64,000 nucleotides of DNA, from the NCBI GenBank assembly GCA_963775955.1, contig CAVZKT010000002.1:160474-224473 (forward strand), read 5' to 3'. The position numbers were made by a program, and so were the translations under genes. Of this stretch, positions 2,733 through 53,039 are shown piece by piece (position 1 is the stretch's first letter; each line of letters opens with the position of its first letter). This stretch comes from Candidatus Moraniibacteriota bacterium. GTDB taxonomy: Bacteria; Patescibacteriota; Minisyncoccia; Moranbacterales; UBA2206. Under the pieces are notes generated by a model, which was not told the DNA's origin, did no database searches, and was given only the letters and a program-made list of their open reading frames with translations.

Positions 2733-3824
2733 ATGCTTAAAAACTTTTTAAAACTGGACTGGGTTTTGGGCGCGGCAATCGCGCTGCTTTTAGGTGTGGG
2801 AATTCTGGCTCTTTATAGCGTTTCCTTTCTTGAAAACGCTTTAGTGACAGATCATTTTTATCGCCAGTTGGCGTCTATCCTTCTGGGAATTATTCTGATG
2901 CTGATTTTTTCATTTTTTGATTACCGGGCATTGAGTCCATACAGCACAAAATTATATTTTGCGATGATTGCCATTTTGTTTTTGGTGCTGATTTTTGGCG
3001 CGACTGTGCGGGGCACGACAGGCTGGATCGGAAGCGGTAATTTTCATATTCAGCCTGTAGAGGCAGCAAAAATAATTATGATTATTTTTTTAGCCAGTTT
3101 TCTTTCCAAAAAGAAAACAAAACTTAGCGAAACCGCAAAAATTGCCGTTTCGGTACTACTTGTCTTCATTCCGGTATTTTTGATTCTCAGGCAGCCGGAT
3201 TTTGGCTCAGCGGCGGTAGTAGCGGGCATTTGGGGCGGAATGCTTTTTGTTTCTGAAATCAGTAAAAAAAATATACTTCTGCTTTTTTTGGCCATTGCCA
3301 TCGTTGCCGGAGGAAGTTATTTTTTTCTGAAGGATTATCAAAAAGAAAGACTTTATAATTTTGTAAACCCAAGCAATGATCCCCTGGGAAGCGGATATAA
3401 TGTGGCGCAGTCTATGGTAGCTGTTGGATCGGGCGGAATATTCGGCAAAGGGCTGGGCCACGGTCCTCAATCGCAGCTGAATTTTCTCCCGGAAAAACAC
3501 ACCGATTTTATTTTCGCGGCTATTGCAGAGGAGCTGGGTCTTTTAGGATCGCTTTTCGTAATTTTTCTTTTTGGCGTTCTTCTTTACAGGATAAAAAAAA
3601 CGGCGCGCTTGGCCCGCGATAATTTCGGCTATTTGCTGGCGGTCGGAGTGATGATTATGTTTTTTTTGCAAATATTGATTAATATCGGAATGAATATGGG
3701 GCTTAATCCAGTGGCTGGAGTCCCGCTGCCCCTTTTAAGCTACGGAGGAAGTTCAATCGTAGCCGTTTTAGTTGGCTTGGGCATTGTTCAAAGCGTTTAT
3801 CTGCGAGGGATAAAGAGGGGTTGA
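2733..3824 (+). CDS. SEDS-family peptidoglycan glycosyltransferase (RodA/FtsW-like; likely RodA because it is not in the dcw cluster)
   Basis: 363 aa, polytopic. Shows the GKGLGHGPQSQLNFLPEKHTDFIFAAIAEELG and PLPLLSYGGSS motifs typical of FtsW/RodA. Confidence 0.85.
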   Translation: MLKNFLKLDWVLGAAIALLLGVGILALYSVSFLENALVTDHFYRQLASILLGIILMLIFSFFDYRALSPYSTKLYFAMIAILFLVLIFGATVRGTTGWIGSGNFHIQPVEAAKIIMIIFLASFLSKKKTKLSETAKIAVSVLLVFIPVFLILRQPDFGSAAVVAGIWGGMLFVSEISKKNILLLFLAIAIVAGGSYFFLKDYQKERLYNFVNPSNDPLGSGYNVAQSMVAVGSGGIFGKGLGHGPQSQLNFLPEKHTDFIFAAIAEELGLLGSLFVIFLFGVLLYRIKKTARLARDNFGYLLAVGVMIMFFLQILINIGMNMGLNPVAGVPLPLLSYGGSSIVAVLVGLGIVQSVYLRGIKRG

Positions 3825-3939
3825 CCCCATTAGAAATTTATCGACGGCTTTATTTTTACGGACACGCGCAAGCGAAGCGGCTTCACCTTTAAATTTCGTT
3901 ATTAGTAGGTATTTTCTGAAACTTCTAACGGGGTTGACC
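3819..3939. mobile_element. Family A miniature inverted-repeat element, copy A1 (TIR GGTTGACCCCATTAGAAATTT / AAACTTCTAACGGGGTTGACC)
   Basis: Terminal inverted repeats ~20 nt. Internal conserved core cgcgcaagcgaagcggcttc shared with copy A2. The right end provides TTGACC. Confidence 0.65.
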
Positions 3940-3962
3940 AAAATATTTAACTATGATAAAAT
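3934..3962 (+). promoter_or_regulatory. sigma70-like promoter (TTGACC-17-TAAAAT) contributed by the element A1 terminus; transcript nearly leaderless for the 3971 ORF
   Basis: TTGACC 3934-3939; 17-nt spacer; TAAAAT 3957-3962; ATG at 3971. Confidence 0.5.
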
Positions 3963-3970
3963 TCTAAAAC

Positions 3971-4306
3971 ATGGCAAAAAATAAAAATGGAAACTTAGAC
4001 TTTCTGTTAAGATGCTCCTTCTGCGGAAACGGGCTTGAGCAAAATGAGCTGACGATACTGGAAAAGCAGGATCACAAAACCATACTGCACGTTTCCTGTT
4101 CACGATGCGGGACATCCTCAATTTCAATTTTGTCCAGCAATCAGGCCGGCATCATAAGTTTGGGAATGGCAACAGACTTGGACAAGGATGAGGTCAAAAG
4201 TAAATTTTCAAAAAACACAATCAGCGCCGATGAGGTTATTGATGCGCATGAATTTATTGAGAGCAAGCGGGGAAACCTGATGGAATTGATAAAAAATAAC
4301 AAGTGA
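3971..4306 (+). CDS. hypothetical zinc-ribbon protein (CxxC...CxxC)
   Basis: 111 aa; CSFCGNG ... CSRCG. Stop overlaps the next start (ATGA-like tight coupling with rplY). Confidence 0.5.
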   Translation: MAKNKNGNLDFLLRCSFCGNGLEQNELTILEKQDHKTILHVSCSRCGTSSISILSSNQAGIISLGMATDLDKDEVKSKFSKNTISADEVIDAHEFIESKRGNLMELIKNNK

Positions 4307-5022
4307 AATGCAAAACAATGGAAAAAATAAGGTTAAAGGCAAAGCTAAGGGAGGAAAGAGGAAAAAAAGTGAACAAGGGAAGGAAAAGCGGGCTCATTCC
4401 GGCGGTTACTTATGGAAAAAGCGCCGAGTCGCAAAGCCTGTGGATTGATAATTTGGATTTTAGCCGGTTGATAAAAAAACACGGAGAAAGCGTTATCATA
4501 GATTTAAGCATCGGTGAAAAGAGCGGCCATAATGTCCTGATTCATGAGATGCAGCAAAATCCGATAAGCGGAAACATTTCCCACATCGATTTTTATCAAG
4601 TGAAAATGGATGAAAAAATTGAAACTGAAGTAGAGCTGGTTTTTGTCGGTGAGTCTCCGGCTGTCAAGGAATTGGGGGGAGTTTTGGTAAAAAGTCTGGA
4701 CAAAATTGAAATTTCCTGCTTGCCGGCTGATTTGCCTTCCAGCATAGAAGTAGACATTGCCGATATTAAAACTTTTGAAGATCATATTTATGTGAAAGAC
4801 TTGAATATTCCCAAAGAGGTTGAGATTAAAGACGATCCGGAAACAGTGGTAGCTCTGGTCACTCCTCCGCGATCCGAAGAAGAACTTAGCGAGCTGGAAG
4901 AAAAAGTAGTGGAAGATGTGACGGAAGTTGAGGGAGTAGTAAAAGAAGAGCCGGTTGCCGCGGAAGAAGAAAAGTCCTCCAAAGCGGATAAACCTGTCCG
5001 GCCAGGGGAGAAAAAAGAATAG
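4303..5022 (+). CDS. rplY: 50S ribosomal protein L25 / general stress protein Ctc (bL25) with acidic C-terminal tail
   Basis: N-terminal region LKAKLREERGKKVNKGRKSGLIPAVTYGK...SQSLWID is typical of L25/Ctc. Long E-rich C-terminus. Confidence 0.8.
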   Translation: MKCKTMEKIRLKAKLREERGKKVNKGRKSGLIPAVTYGKSAESQSLWIDNLDFSRLIKKHGESVIIDLSIGEKSGHNVLIHEMQQNPISGNISHIDFYQVKMDEKIETEVELVFVGESPAVKELGGVLVKSLDKIEISCLPADLPSSIEVDIADIKTFEDHIYVKDLNIPKEVEIKDDPETVVALVTPPRSEEELSELEEKVVEDVTEVEGVVKEEPVAAEEEKSSKADKPVRPGEKKE

Positions 5023-5085: not shown

Positions 5086-6315
5086 ATGTGGTATAATATG
5101 ACCATGAGAAATGTGAAGAAAAAGGCATTGCTGATTTTTTTAGTTGCGCTATTTGCAGGCGCGAACTTTTTTAGCTATGGCAATTTTCAGGCTAAGGCTG
5201 ACACGGCGGAAGAAATTCAAAATCATCTGGATGATTTGCTGAAGAAGCAAAAAGCAGCCGAGGCTGAATTGGCAACCGAGCAGTCCAAGCTGTATAAAAA
5301 TCAGGCGCAAATCAACGCCACGCAGGCGCTGGTTAAGCAGATTAAGGATGAAATAGCCAGGCGGGAAGAAGAATTAAAAAATCTTGAAGATAGGGCCCGG
5401 CTGAACAAAACAATGCTGGCGGAATATATCAGGCAGCTTTATTATGCCAATCAGGAAAACGATCCGCTTATCAGCCTGGCTATGTTTCAAGGGAATCTAA
5501 GCGATATGGTTTTGAATTTTGATAGCACGGTTAGGATAAAAGAAAAAATAATGGACGCGCTGCAAATAATCAATGACGCAAAAACCGAAAACGAAAAAGC
5601 CAAAAATGCTCTGGCAAGCCAGCAACAGGATCGTCAGCAAGTTCTTGCGTCGCAACAGGTTCAGCAAAACCAGATAGCAGGCGAGGTGCAAGAAAAGAAG
5701 GCAAGTGTTGCGGAAATCCAGCAGAAAATTTCAAAATTAAGAAGCACACTGGCGTCTTTTTTAGGTAAATCAATAAGCATGGATGACGTTATTGAGGCAG
5801 TTAAATATGCCGATAAAAAAACGGGTGTTAGAAAAGAATTTTTATTTGCCATGCTTGATAAAGAAAGTGACCTTGGAAGATTTACGGGAGGGTGCACATA
5901 TAAAAACAGCAAAATGGGTGACTATAATGAAAAAATATTCAAAAACATTTGTGGTGAGCTTGGATATGATTATAAAAAAATGAAAGTCTCCTGTCCTCTT
6001 AGCTATGGAATCGGGGGCGCTATGGGTGTGGCGCAGTTTATGCCTAGCACTTGGGGTGATCCAGATGGAAGTCCAGTCGGATGGATCCCAAGAATTAGAT
6101 CAGCTACGGGCCACAATCCTCCAGACCCATGGAATCTAAAAGATGGAATCATGGGAATGGCATTAAAGTTGAAAGCGGCCGGAGCTGATAGCAGAAGCAA
6201 GGAACATTATGCCGCCTCGGTATATTATTGTGGCAGTAATTTGTCAAGGGCTGTGTGCCAAAATTATGCCGATTCAGTCATTAGCTGGTCAAAGGGTTAC
6301 GACGATTATTTTTAA
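5086..6315 (+). CDS. secreted coiled-coil protein with C-terminal lytic transglycosylase (MltB/SLT-like) domain
   Basis: Signal/TM at N-terminus; Q/E-rich coiled coil; C-terminal GIGGAMGVAQFMPSTW motif characteristic of MltB-type lytic murein transglycosylases. Confidence 0.6.
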   Translation: MWYNMTMRNVKKKALLIFLVALFAGANFFSYGNFQAKADTAEEIQNHLDDLLKKQKAAEAELATEQSKLYKNQAQINATQALVKQIKDEIARREEELKNLEDRARLNKTMLAEYIRQLYYANQENDPLISLAMFQGNLSDMVLNFDSTVRIKEKIMDALQIINDAKTENEKAKNALASQQQDRQQVLASQQVQQNQIAGEVQEKKASVAEIQQKISKLRSTLASFLGKSISMDDVIEAVKYADKKTGVRKEFLFAMLDKESDLGRFTGGCTYKNSKMGDYNEKIFKNICGELGYDYKKMKVSCPLSYGIGGAMGVAQFMPSTWGDPDGSPVGWIPRIRSATGHNPPDPWNLKDGIMGMALKLKAAGADSRSKEHYAASVYYCGSNLSRAVCQNYADSVISWSKGYDDYF

Positions 6316-6438
6316 TTTGACCCCGTACGAAGTTCGTTGATAATTTTATTTTTATAAACACGTGCAAGCGAAGCGGCTTCGCTTTAAATCCTCATATTAG
6401 AAATTATTTTCTGAAACTTCTAACGGGGTTGACAAAAG
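6314..6438. mobile_element. Family A miniature inverted-repeat element, copy A2
   Basis: TIRs TTGACCCCGTACGAAGTT / AACTTCTAACGGGGTTGACA. Internal core acgtgcaagcgaagcggcttcgc is near-identical to A1. Confidence 0.65.
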
Positions 6439-6456
6439 CATGAAAAGAGAGTATAA
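6428..6456 (+). promoter_or_regulatory. consensus sigma70 promoter TTGACA-17-TATAAT (partly within the element A2 terminus)
   Basis: TTGACA 6428-6433; 17-nt spacer; TATAAT 6451-6456. Near-identical to the promoter at 25228-25256. Confidence 0.7.
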
Positions 6457-6462
6457 TTAAAA

Positions 6463-6614
6463 ACAGGACGGGTGAATGCCCGTTTTTATCGTTTGAAAAA
6501 TAAAAACAAAAAAATGCGGCCGAAAGGCCTAAAAAATTAAAGGCAAGATTCCTTGCTTTATCCTTAGTGAATAAGGAAAATAATGCAAAAAACCTGATTT
6601 TTCAGGTTTTTTTG
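6463..6614 (+). ncRNA. candidate ~150-nt small RNA or riboswitch-like leader (promoter to intrinsic terminator) upstream of murA
   Basis: Starts about 7 nt after the -10. Hairpins acgggugaaugcccgu, ggccgaaaggcc (GAAA tetraloop), uccuuagugaauaagga. Ends with aaccugauuuuucagguu + U7 (6589-6614). A separate TTGAAT-18-TATACT promoter follows before murA. No ORF. Confidence 0.45.
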
Positions 6615-6668
6615 TTTTTCGCAAAAGCGGGGTTGAATTATTTTCGAGATTTAAAATATACTAGTACT

Positions 6669-7936
<1,268 letters not shown>

Positions 7937-7974: not shown

Positions 7975-8419
7975 GTGAGAAAGAAAAAAGCCGGGGAAAA
8001 ATACATAGGAGTCGGAGGGGGAATTTTAATTTTCAATAAAAAAGGAGAGGTTTTATTGATGAAGCGAGGCAAAAATTCCAGCAATGAGATAGGCTGGTGG
8101 AACTCAGCCAGGAGGGACCATTGAATTTGGAGAAAAAGCGGTGGAAGGACTTAAAAGAGAAATAAAAGAGGAGTTGAATATAAATGTTAAAATCTGGGGC
8201 TATGCTCCGCATGTGGATCATATTATTAAAAGAGAAAAACAGCACTGGATCGCGATTATTTTTTTAGCGGATCTAAAGAGCGAGACGCCGAAAATTATGG
8301 AACCGCATAAATGCGATGAAATAAAATGGTTCGATTTAAAAAAATTACCAAAAAAATTGACGCAATCAACAAGAGAGCCAATTGAAAATTATTTAAAAGG
8401 AAAATATATTAAATTGTAA
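7975..8419 (+). CDS. NUDIX hydrolase (probable GTG start), one frameshift near 8100
   Basis: GVGGGILIFNKKGEVLLMKRGKN...IGWW then PGGTIEFGEKAVEGLKREIKEELN (Nudix box GX5EX7REUXEEXGU) in the +1 frame. Confidence 0.6.
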
Positions 8420-8423
8420 TTTT

Positions 8424-9433
8424 ATGCCTTTATTTGTGCGGAAAATTGGAATTGATCTAGGAACAGCAAATACGCTGGTTTTTGTGCCAGGCAAAGGAGT
8501 GGTGGTGAACGAGCCGTCGGTGGTGGCGATTTCGATTTTGGATAATAAGGTTTTGGCGGTGGGAAATGATGCTAAGGAAATGCTCGGGCGCACGCCGGAT
8601 ACGATTGTGGCCAGCCGGCCAATGAAAGACGGAGTCATTGCCGATTACCGCATCACAGAAGCCATGCTTAAATATTTTATCAATAAGGTCAGCGGAAAAA
8701 TCCGCTTGATACGTCCGGAAATCATGATTTCCATTCCGGCGGGAGTAACTTCCACGGAAAGAAGAGCGGTGATTGACGCGGCGGTGCGCGCGGGAGCCAA
8801 GGCCGCTTATGTGGTCAAGGAACCGGTGTTGGCGGCCATCGGCGCCGGCATTCCGATTAATTCTCCAGCGGGAAATATGATAATTGACATTGGCGGAGGA
8901 ACTTCGGAAGTCGCGATCATATCTCTGGGCGGAATTGTGGCGGCGCACAGCGCGCGGGTGGGCGGAAATAAGCTGGATCAGGCGATTTCCGACTACATCA
9001 AAAGAAAACACGGCTTGGCAATTGGGGAAAGGACGGCCGAAGAAATAAAAATCAAAATCGGCTCAGCCATTGCCCAAGTGAAAGAAGAATATATGGAAGT
9101 GCGGGGTCGCGATCTTACCGGCGGTTTGCCGAAGACGGTAAAAATTTCTTCCAACGAAATCACAGAAGCGCTGCAGGATGAGCTGCGCGAAATTATCAAT
9201 ACCATCAAAAAGGTTTTGCAGGATACTCCGCCGGAGCTGGCCGCGGATGTTATGGACAAGGGCATGGTGCTTTCCGGAGGCGGGGCGCTTCTGCGCCACA
9301 TTGACCAGTTGATTACCAAGACAATCGAGGTGCCGTGTTATGTGGCGGATGATCCGCTTTATCTGCGTTATTAAAGGCATTGGGATCGCTCTTGGATAAT
9401 TTGGACGTGTATAAGGACGATAATGCTAACTAA
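8424..9433 (+). CDS. mreB: rod-shape determining protein MreB; C-terminal 25 codons in shifted frames (two indels ~9352 and ~9395)
   Basis: IGIDLGTANTLVFV...DGVIADY...IIDIGGGTSEVAIISLGG, typical actin-like MreB. The conserved tail CVIKGIGIAL/DNLDVYKDDNAN is only found by frame switching. Confidence 0.85.
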
Positions 9434-51807: not shown

Positions 51808-51836
51808 TTGACAAAAAACAAATTTCCACATATAAT
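51808..51836 (+). promoter_or_regulatory. consensus promoter TTGACA-17-TATAAT upstream of the KH-trmD operon (~105-nt leader)
   Basis: ttgacaaaaaacaaatttccacatataat. Confidence 0.65.
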
Positions 51837-51946: not shown

Positions 51947-52258
51947 ATGGCAGATCAAGACAGGGATTTTGTTGAATATGTTGTCAAACAAATAGTCAAC
52001 AATCCGGACGCTGTTAAGGTTGACAGAAAAATCGATGAAATGGGCGTTCTTATTTCTTTGGACGTAGCTCCGGAAGATATGGGAATGGTTATCGGTCGAG
52101 AGGGCGCAACCGCCAAGGCTCTCAGAACCCTTCTGCGGGTTATCGGCGCAAAAAACAATGCCCGGGTAAACCTCAAAATCAACGAACCGGAAGGTTCCGA
52201 GAGAAAGCCACGGGAGCAGAGAAGCATTGATGAAGTTGTCGGAGGCATTGAAGTTTAG
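51947..52258 (+). CDS. KH-domain RNA-binding protein (KhpA/YlqC family)
   Basis: VIGREGATAKALRTLLRVIGA (GxxG KH core). Conserved position upstream of trmD. Confidence 0.7.
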   Translation: MADQDRDFVEYVVKQIVNNPDAVKVDRKIDEMGVLISLDVAPEDMGMVIGREGATAKALRTLLRVIGAKNNARVNLKINEPEGSERKPREQRSIDEVVGGIEV

Positions 52259-52322
52259 GTTAAAAATCAGTATTTTGTTTAGACAAAAAGGCCGCAAAAC
52301 GGCTTTTTTGTTTTGATAAAAT

Positions 52323-53039
52323 GTGGTAAGATTAAATCGCATGCGCTTTGAAATAATTACAATTTTTCCAGAAATTTTTAATTCCTATTTTTCGGAATCA
52401 ATAATTAAGCGCGCCCAAAAAGCGGGGCTGATTGACGTTGGAATTAATGATTTACGGGATTTTACAACTGACAAGCACAAAACGGTGGACGACACGCCAT
52501 ATGGCGGCGGAGCGGGAATGGTGCTCAAAATTGAACCCATCTGGCGATGTGTCCAATTTATAAAATCCAAAATCCAAAATACCAAATTCCAAATAAATCC
52601 AAAATCCAAAACTCAAAATTCAAAAACGCGGATTATTTTATTTTCCGCCAAAGGAAAAAAGTACACGCAGAAAGATGCCAAGAGACTGGCTAAATATGAT
52701 AATTTAATTTTAATTTGTGGGCGCTACGAAGGTGTAGACGAACGGGTGGCAAAATATATTGCCGATGAAGAAATTTCCATCGGCGATTTTGTGCTGACTG
52801 GCGGAGAAATTCCGGCGATGATCTTGGTTGATTCAATATCCAGGTTAATTCCGGGGGTTTTGGGGAATATTGAAAGCGCCAAAGAAGAATCGCATAATAT
52901 TGAAGGTTATTTAGAGTTTCCCCAATACACAAAGCCGGAGATTTATAATAAATGGAAAGTTCCGAAAATTTTGCTTTCCGGAAACCATGAAGAAATAGAA
53001 AGATGGCGGAAAAAACATTCTAAAATTTTAGGAGCTTAG
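52323..53039 (+). CDS. trmD: tRNA (guanine37-N1)-methyltransferase TrmD with an in-frame microsatellite-encoded insertion
   Basis: [13 protein letters not shown]...[16 protein letters not shown] ... insert [21 protein letters not shown] ... [12 protein letters not shown]...GDFVLTGGE. Confidence 0.85.
52558..52625. repeat. AAATCCAAA-type microsatellite inside trmD (in frame)
   Basis: aaatccaaaatccaaaataccaaattccaaataaatccaaaatccaaaactcaaaattcaaaa. Confidence 0.8.

Follow-up and report, generated by a model that had tools for sequence, protein, structure and literature searches.

The window analysed here is a 64,000-nt stretch (positions 160,474 to 224,473, forward strand) of contig CAVZKT010000002.1 from the Candidatus Moraniibacteriota bacterium assembly GCA_963775955.1. 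Near its beginning it carries a cluster of elongation genes identified by Pfam, in which rodA/ftsW is followed by genes for a 111-amino-acid protein of unknown function, ribosomal protein L25 and an SLT-type lytic transglycosylase, and then by murA (EPSP_synthase matches), a NUDIX protein gene and mreB (Table 1). The spacer between the transglycosylase gene and murA holds a conserved, structured small non-coding RNA gene that is present in some Moranbacteria, ultra-small bacteria of the Candidate Phyla Radiation (CPR). A first-pass annotation of the sequence had described this unit as either a candidate small RNA or a riboswitch-like attenuator of murA. The former is borne out by a conserved promoter, helices with compensatory changes, a terminator and the lack of a conserved open reading frame (ORF), and a riboswitch or attenuator reading for murA is not supported.

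A Promoter-to-Terminator Unit Upstream of murA

The signals reported in the first-pass annotation are all present, comprising a TTGACA-17-TATAAT promoter, a GAAA-tetraloop stem, a canonical intrinsic terminator and a separate TTGAAT-18-TATACT promoter for murA. The RNA promoter matches the consensus at 12 of 12 positions; a consensus scan found no other 12/12 match in the first 20 kb, and with both strands scanned the whole window has two, this one included, whereas by our own arithmetic about 0.08 would be expected by chance at a GC content of 40.6%. With its start placed from the position of the -10 box, the predicted transcript has the annotated length of about 150 nt and, again as annotated, contains no ORF of note; the three to four hairpins originally counted are in fact five, namely P1, P2, P3, P4 and the intrinsic terminator. 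The segment 6459-6614 folds at -47 kcal/mol (z = -5.3), dinucleotide shuffles giving -27.2 +/- 3.7 kcal/mol with none of 200 doing as well, and its reverse strand also folds well (z = -4.7), as is usual for hairpins. We regard the unit as more than chance because related genomes have kept it and show compensatory base changes in it.

Table 1. Coordinates of the RNA unit, its parts and its surroundings in the window
Feature	Position	Strand	Description
RNA promoter	6429-6457	+	-35 TTGACA 6429-6434, 17-nt spacer, -10 TATAAT 6452-6457
Predicted non-coding RNA	6464-6613	+	about 150 nt; predicted transcription start to end of terminator U run
P1, 5' hairpin	6465-6486	+	AGGACGGGU-GAAU-GCCCGUUUU, then U-rich; folding and terminator scan
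A-rich unpaired linker	6487-6517	+	UAUCGUUUGAAAAAUAAAAACAAAAAAAUGC
P2	6518-6529	+	GGCC-GAAA-GGCC; GAAA-tetraloop stem ggccgaaaggcc
P3, conserved core hairpin	6538-6559	+	UUAAAGGCAAG-AUUC-CUUGCUUU; stem 6540-6547 with 6552-6559
P4	6561-6577	+	UCCUUA-GUGAA-UAAGGA; pyrimidine-first hairpin
Intrinsic terminator	6590-6613	+	stem 6590-6597 with 6602-6609, UUUU loop, U run to 6613; terminator scan
murA promoter and start	promoter 6633-6662, ATG 6669-6671	+	TTGAAT-18-TATACT; separate transcription unit; promoter scan
Element A2	6316-6434		119-nt repeat, inverted ends, TTGAC on both sides; adjacent to the RNA, not part of it
Element A, other copy	3821-3939		79-84% identical to A2
rodA/ftsW	2733-3824
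Protein of unknown function	3971-4306		111 amino acids
Ribosomal protein L25	4303-5022
Lytic transglycosylase	5086-6315		SLT-type
murA	6669-7927		split by two frameshifts
NUDIX protein	7975-8416		one frameshift
mreB	8424-9374
Second TTGACA-17-TATAAT	51808-51836	+	about 110 nt upstream of the KhpA-type gene
KhpA-type KH protein	51947-52258		Pfam KH_KhpA-B, 80 bits

Homologues in Related Moranbacteria

We found 14 distinct homologous copies of the RNA in related Moranbacteria contigs, the most divergent of which, L030, is tentative. A scan by transglycosylase alignment with one genome per species gave 80 Moranbacteria loci, and the copies L002, L004, L102, L010, L027, L042 and the tentative L030 were reached by way of lytic transglycosylase homologues; L085, L086, L087/L093, L089, L091 and L100 were picked up by scanning metagenomes with the P3 pattern. 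The covariance model R1, built on a single sequence and five helices, scores 198.8 bits at the window RNA and finds the RNA in L010, L027 and L042. The P3-pattern scan returned 17 loci, nine of them true copies (L085, L086, L087, L093, L089, L091, L099, L100 and L101; eight by model score and L101 by sequence) and the other eight chance palindromes. L099 lies on the same contig as L010, and L101 is identical to L100 and cut off at the contig end. A multi-sequence covariance model of the 3' domain (R3) recovers all these copies at 33-91 bits, the window scoring 90.8 bits, and adds one divergent candidate, L030 (27.5 bits). The L030 copy likewise lies directly upstream of murA, is preceded by a TTGACG-17-TATACT promoter of its own and includes a P1-like hairpin. 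Borderline model matches at L029, L055 and two window segments (42191-42402 and 52283-52422) were judged not homologous. Neither R1 nor R3 found a second RNA copy in the 64-kb window, and the P3 pattern had no match in IMG/VR, hence no phage association was seen.

Transglycosylase-murA synteny is conserved in the contigs of the closest homologues, with a very variable spacer. Giving the amino-acid identity of each transglycosylase to that of the window in brackets, L002 (78%) has the entire unit together with element A, a short repeat that abuts the RNA promoter in the window, and L004 (70%) and L102 (65%) have the promoter and RNA without element A. The spacers of L001 (80%), L003 (78%), L103/L104 (63%), L105 (58%) and L106 (58%) lack the RNA, and all of these retain the murA promoter. 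Both hexamers and the spacing of the RNA promoter are kept as TTGACA-17-TATAAT (or TATACT) in L002, L004, L102, L010, L027 and L091, and in the long form of the RNA part of the spacer is conserved as well, giving TTGACAAAAG-N10-GAGTATAMT. The promoter of L085 and L086 reads TTGCTT-17-TATAAT, and a clear promoter was not seen in L042/L087 or L089.

The first-pass annotation had proposed covariation in relatives as a check, and this came out in its favour. In a 12-sequence alignment, 94.8% of cells fall in standard pairs compared with 69.9 +/- 1.6% in shuffles and 28 of 35 pairs have changed on both sides, with 0 of 500 shuffles reaching the observed values, the pairing figures being inflated somewhat by the fitting of the alignment to the model structure. 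Pairing falls to 43-64% in slid controls, in which the 3' partners were shifted. P3, P4 and the terminator were also predicted independently when RNAalifold was run on the same alignment, 18 of the 23 pairs being compensatory. The raw homologue sequences show the hairpins plainly, and MAFFT alignments of the homologues put the helices out of register. P2, P4 and the terminator keep their pairing despite sequence change. Across the helices there are 22 G.U pairs versus 2 A.C, which places the RNA on the + strand; an RNA on the opposite strand is ruled out by these counts, the promoter orientation and the U tail.

Anatomy of the RNA

The 3' domain forms the constant part of the family. P3 is almost invariant across homologues (consensus UAAAGGCUAGAUUCCUYGCCUU, of which AUUCCUYGCC makes up the loop and 3' strand), and a U.U or U.C mismatch at one position is common to nine of the 12 sequences. 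Covariation in P3 is scant, one pair varying as G-C, G-U and U-A. In some copies GG insertions pair with the CC of AUUCC and lengthen the stem rather than disrupting it. Such a pattern would be expected if selection acts on P3 as an RNA hairpin and the sequence of its loop and 3' strand is important. P3 was also considered as a DNA operator palindrome for the murA promoter and rejected, the distance from P3 to the -35 box varying from 65 to 102 nt; since the 2-nt insertions extend the RNA stem, selection at the RNA level is favoured over a DNA operator.

P4 and the terminator differ in sequence in nearly every lineage, and their pairing is always kept. Five of the six P4 pairs have changed on both sides among homologues, 97% of cells being paired, with variants such as UCCCGC/GCGGGA, GCCCCGACG/CGUCGGGG, UUCUUC/GAAGAA and CACAG/CUGUG. 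The terminator, which reads aaaaaaccuga-uuuu-ucagguuuuuu at 6590-6609 in the window, has all eight pairs double-changed and 98.9% of cells paired, and a U run follows its stem in every homologue. The short forms L085 and L086 consist of a short 5' tail and three plain hairpins, P3, P4 and the terminator, which suggests that P3 is the functional core.

The 5' domain is more variable. Every long form has a linker of 20-40 nt with (A)5Y-type repeats. P2 varies as AGCC-GAAA-GGCU in L027, CCCG-GAAAA-CGGG in L091 and AUCCU...AGGAU in L042/L087, is a long branched hairpin in L004 and L100, and is absent from L010, L102, L085 and L086. P1 has in the family a ACGGGUGA...CCCGU core and then a stretch of Us; L002, L004, L102, L010 and L027 retain ACGGGUGA...CCCG, L091 has UCGGGUGA...CCCG in its place, and the loops vary. 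A different 5' hairpin replaces P1 in L042/L087 and L100; a 5' hairpin is missing from L085 and L086 and was not identified in L089. In the window P1 is terminator-like, followed by UUUUUAUCGUUU and scored as an intrinsic terminator by the scan. It begins essentially at the predicted transcription start, and the transglycosylase gene of L004 has no other terminator before P1, so P1 may also terminate upstream transcription; alternatively, it may self-attenuate the RNA.

In L100 (reverse strand, oriented 20-190) the P1 and P2 arms are near-identical (CCUGUUAAAU / AUUUAACNGGG), so that the P1 3' arm and P2 5' arm could pair in an alternative helix of about 15 bp around the A-rich linker. This re-pairing is a possible conformational switch predicted for that clade only, and is weaker in L004.

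A Probable Stand-Alone Small RNA Gene

We consider it probable, with some reserve, that the unit is an independent transcription unit, that is, a stand-alone small RNA gene on the + strand. The RNA family is previously undescribed and limited to part of the Moranbacteria/Parcubacteria (CPR). The RNA would be made from its own consensus sigma-70-type promoter, ended by its own terminator, and would act in trans as a regulatory RNA. Its working surface may be the invariant CU-rich tract that spans the loop of P3 and reaches the 5' arm of P4 (in the window, AUUCCUUGCUUUAUCCUUA). C/U-rich small RNAs of Gram-positive bacteria pair with Shine-Dalgarno-like purine-rich sites, and the P3-P4 tract could likewise pair with purine-rich, Shine-Dalgarno-like sites; the A-rich linker might offer a platform for a single-stranded-RNA-binding protein. 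The regulated genes would probably lie in the surrounding cell-envelope cluster of rodA, the lytic transglycosylase, murA and mreB. The position of the RNA beside murA within the elongation-gene cluster is suggestive, and because nine lineages keep the RNA before murA, a functional link to murA or the cell-wall genes is possible.

Several points weigh against this reading, in addition to the partly inflated pairing figures given above. We infer the expression of the RNA, its ends and the amount of terminator read-through from the sequence. The RNA is patchy, being missing from the spacer in L001 and L003 at 78-80% transglycosylase identity, and is therefore dispensable or relocatable. In nine of 12 lineages it immediately precedes murA on the same strand, with a varying upstream gene, a pattern resembling that of a cis element. 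No conserved pairing between the RNA and the murA 5' region was found by RNAduplex in eight species (z = -0.2 to +1.9 in seven of the eight, L100 being the sole outlier), in a test that is weak because very long loops are allowed. P3 is complementary to GCAAGGAA at 6197, in the 3' part of the transglycosylase coding sequence, but relatives do not conserve this match, and the complement of the P3 motif gives chance-level matches only across the 64-kb window, including near start codons.

A full-text search of the literature on regulatory RNAs of CPR bacteria found nothing relevant, and the regulatory RNAs of CPR/Patescibacteria, which have tiny genomes and few known regulators, appear essentially uncharted. 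The RNA described here offers an entry point to RNA-based control in the CPR and is a new family that could join Rfam. If its link to murA is functional, it bears on the control of cell-wall synthesis in ultra-small bacteria.

Alternative Explanations

The first and main alternative is a cis-acting role for the RNA, as a leader or attenuator of murA that is riboswitch-like or protein-dependent and arranged as tandem promoters. Transcription from the strong promoter at 6429 would as a rule be stopped at the terminator, and a ligand or protein on P3/P4 would give read-through that adds to the weaker murA promoter. In favour of this reading, the RNA is directly upstream of murA and on its strand in the nine murA-linked lineages (window, L002, L102, L010, L027, L085, L086, L100 and L030; two contigs end before the gene downstream of the RNA). 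The upstream gene differs among them, being murD-like in L085/L086, and in L030 a small membrane protein gene lies between the transglycosylase gene and the RNA, so the RNA stays with murA and not with the transglycosylase. The conserved P3 sequence with its fixed mismatch is also of a kind often seen in ligand or protein sites, and UUCACCC can pair alternatively with GGGUGAA in L004 and L100.

Against the leader reading, a leader has no promoter between itself and its gene, whereas the murA promoter lies between the terminator and the ATG in the window, and a complete promoter stands there in all murA-linked copies that extend as far as murA. L001 and L003, relatives that lack the RNA, have the same murA promoter. 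The murA ATG is 6 nt past its -10 box, and murA therefore looks leaderless. Inspection of 13 homologues revealed no antiterminator/terminator alternative pairing shared across the family; the alternative helix is restricted to L004 and L100, and the terminator is not consistently involved in it. The short forms are simple hairpins with no multi-helix junction, and no Rfam riboswitch family matches. Finally, the RNA is away from murA in three lineages, the next substantial ORF (at least 70 amino acids) downstream in L087/L093 being on the opposite strand and the RNA of L042 and L089 preceding other genes. The attenuator proposed in the first-pass annotation is thus not supported, and we regard a murA leader as unlikely.

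A more specific version, in which the RNA, as a cis sensor of a peptidoglycan-precursor metabolite or a cell-wall stress protein, controls how far transcription from its strong promoter reads through into murA, is compatible with the nine of 12 lineages in which it precedes murA and with the invariant P3 and its fixed mismatch, and we think it very improbable. If true, it would be a new class of riboswitch-like attenuator at the first committed step of cell-wall synthesis, so far confined to the CPR.

The close spacing of the murA ATG to its -10 box recurs in L001, L003 and L010. The gene for the 111-amino-acid protein is similar, its ATG lying 8 nt after a -10 TAAAAT (window 3957-3973), and since neither gene has room for a leader or Shine-Dalgarno sequence, both appear to have leaderless-looking mRNAs.

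The RNA might instead be a protein-binding sponge or scaffold, for example for KhpA/KhpB, that modulates the nearby cell-elongation machinery through its A-rich strand and P3. KhpA and KhpB are global small-RNA binders in bacteria without Hfq and ProQ (10.1101/2023.10.30.564711; PMC10117727), and KhpB recognises single-stranded RNA stretches of 7-9 nt or more while discriminating little between bases (PMC12408800). The RNA is located among rodA, the transglycosylase gene, murA and mreB, and the window encodes a KhpA-type KH protein behind its only other perfect promoter. Support of this kind is circumstantial, there is no known sequence motif to compare, and because KhpA genes are widespread, one in the same window means little. 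We consider the protein-binding reading improbable. Downstream of the KhpA-type gene come trmD and another SEDS (FtsW/RodA) gene, the second in the window.

A non-functional spacer, made up of element A2 boundary hairpins or decayed remnants with a chance promoter, would agree with the way element A2 abuts the -35 box and with the absence of the RNA from the same spacer in several close relatives. The first-pass annotation had named such boundary hairpins as the outcome that would undo its proposal, and they are excluded by six loci that carry the RNA without element A (L004, L010, L027, L091, L085 and L086); compensatory change in P2, P4 and the terminator, with an invariant P3, across lineages with 40-55% transglycosylase identity likewise makes the spacer reading extremely improbable. 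We give almost no credence to a small protein or leader peptide translated from a GUG in P1 (22 codons in the window), because the ORF that begins at the GUG of GG(G)UGA in 11 of 11 homologues checked, and whose A-rich tract would give Lys/Asn runs, ranges from 5 to 74 codons, shows no peptide conservation beyond that dictated by the conserved P1 nucleotides, and starts in the apex of P1, with no Shine-Dalgarno sequence at a suitable distance, so that the unit is non-coding.

Neighbouring Genes and Repeat Elements

Element A is present in two copies in the window, with ends CCCCGT...ACGGGG and a central hairpin, and occurs also in L002 (1997-2116) and L003 (2014-2130). The TTGAC of the RNA -35 box is the right-hand boundary of element A2, and since TTGAC bounds the element on both sides, its right end recreates the -35 box of the host promoter. 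From its sequence, element A appears to behave like a miniature inverted-repeat element targeting TTGAC. Its presence at both sites varies among close relatives. Downstream of the other copy in the window comes a protein gene, with no RNA, and because relatives carry the RNA without the element, the unit does not belong to element A. In L102 another kind of short element, whose inverted ends read CCCGGTAGT...ACTACCGGG, occurs at 4197-4275 and 4520-4589, one copy of which abuts the TTGAC of the RNA promoter, and the second of which lies between the murA promoter and the ATG.

Comparison with the MurA of L002 shows the murA region to be split into pieces encoding amino acids 1-127 (frame 1, 6669-7046), 114-378 (frame 2, 7009-7803) and 378-419 (frame 3, 7802-7927), and the NUDIX gene is likewise broken into 7975-8109 and 8102-8416. 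These amount to three indels in 1.5 kb, and the single indel looked at in detail falls within a short G/C run (cccgggCggg). The frameshifts are either assembly errors or real gene decay.

Comparison with Known RNA Families

The Rfam search suggested in the first-pass annotation gave no family for the locus. At gathering thresholds Rfam 15 has no match at the RNA, either in a scan of the whole window or in 6250-6750, and at E values up to 10 the latter segment gives only sub-threshold matches driven by the terminator. Six homologous loci searched permissively gave no consistent match. The rimP, sraA and ncr1015 matches reflect the terminator alone. The best of the sub-threshold matches is the rimP leader (RF01770; 33.4 bits versus a threshold of 47, over 6555-6644), in which the aligned part consists of the terminator hairpin and U run only and does not amount to a family match. 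6S RNA was also rejected. Its hallmark is a rod-like fold with paired 5' and 3' ends enclosing a central bubble, whereas the conserved structure here is a row of independent hairpins with a self-contained terminator, and there is no Rfam 6S match.

The cyclic di-AMP (c-di-AMP) riboswitch (ydaO-yuaA), raised as a possibility in the first-pass annotation, resembles the window RNA in being a structured RNA with an intrinsic terminator upstream of a cell-wall gene. In contrast to that riboswitch, however, the window RNA has a much simpler architecture, no conserved antiterminator and a promoter separating it from murA, and the Rfam model matches neither the window nor the six homologous loci at gathering or permissive thresholds, which argues against the c-di-AMP proposal.

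GlmY and GlmZ of Enterobacteria, like the window RNA, come from small RNA genes of their own and have a few stem-loops followed by a terminator. They control an early step of cell-wall precursor supply, one of the two acting as a protein decoy, and the place of the window RNA among cell-wall genes suggests by analogy that it could have a role of this type. No homology to them was detected, GlmY and GlmZ act on glmS and not on murA, and the cell-wall link of the window RNA comes from gene neighbourhood alone.

RsaE/RoxS are small RNAs of Gram-positive bacteria that act by base pairing independently of Hfq and carry C/U-rich motifs. The window RNA differs from them in belonging to a CPR lineage, in carrying a long A-rich linker that has no counterpart there, and in its motif, AUUCCUYGCC and not CCCC; no sequence or Rfam similarity and no target were found here. 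It resembles them in having a stand-alone gene with a sigma-70-type promoter and an intrinsic terminator, a length of 100-200 nt with several hairpins, and a conserved pyrimidine-rich motif, placed in or beside a hairpin loop, with the potential to pair with purine tracts of the Shine-Dalgarno type. In its workings the unit resembles any ordinary stand-alone small RNA gene of bacteria, and its architecture is unsurprising for one.

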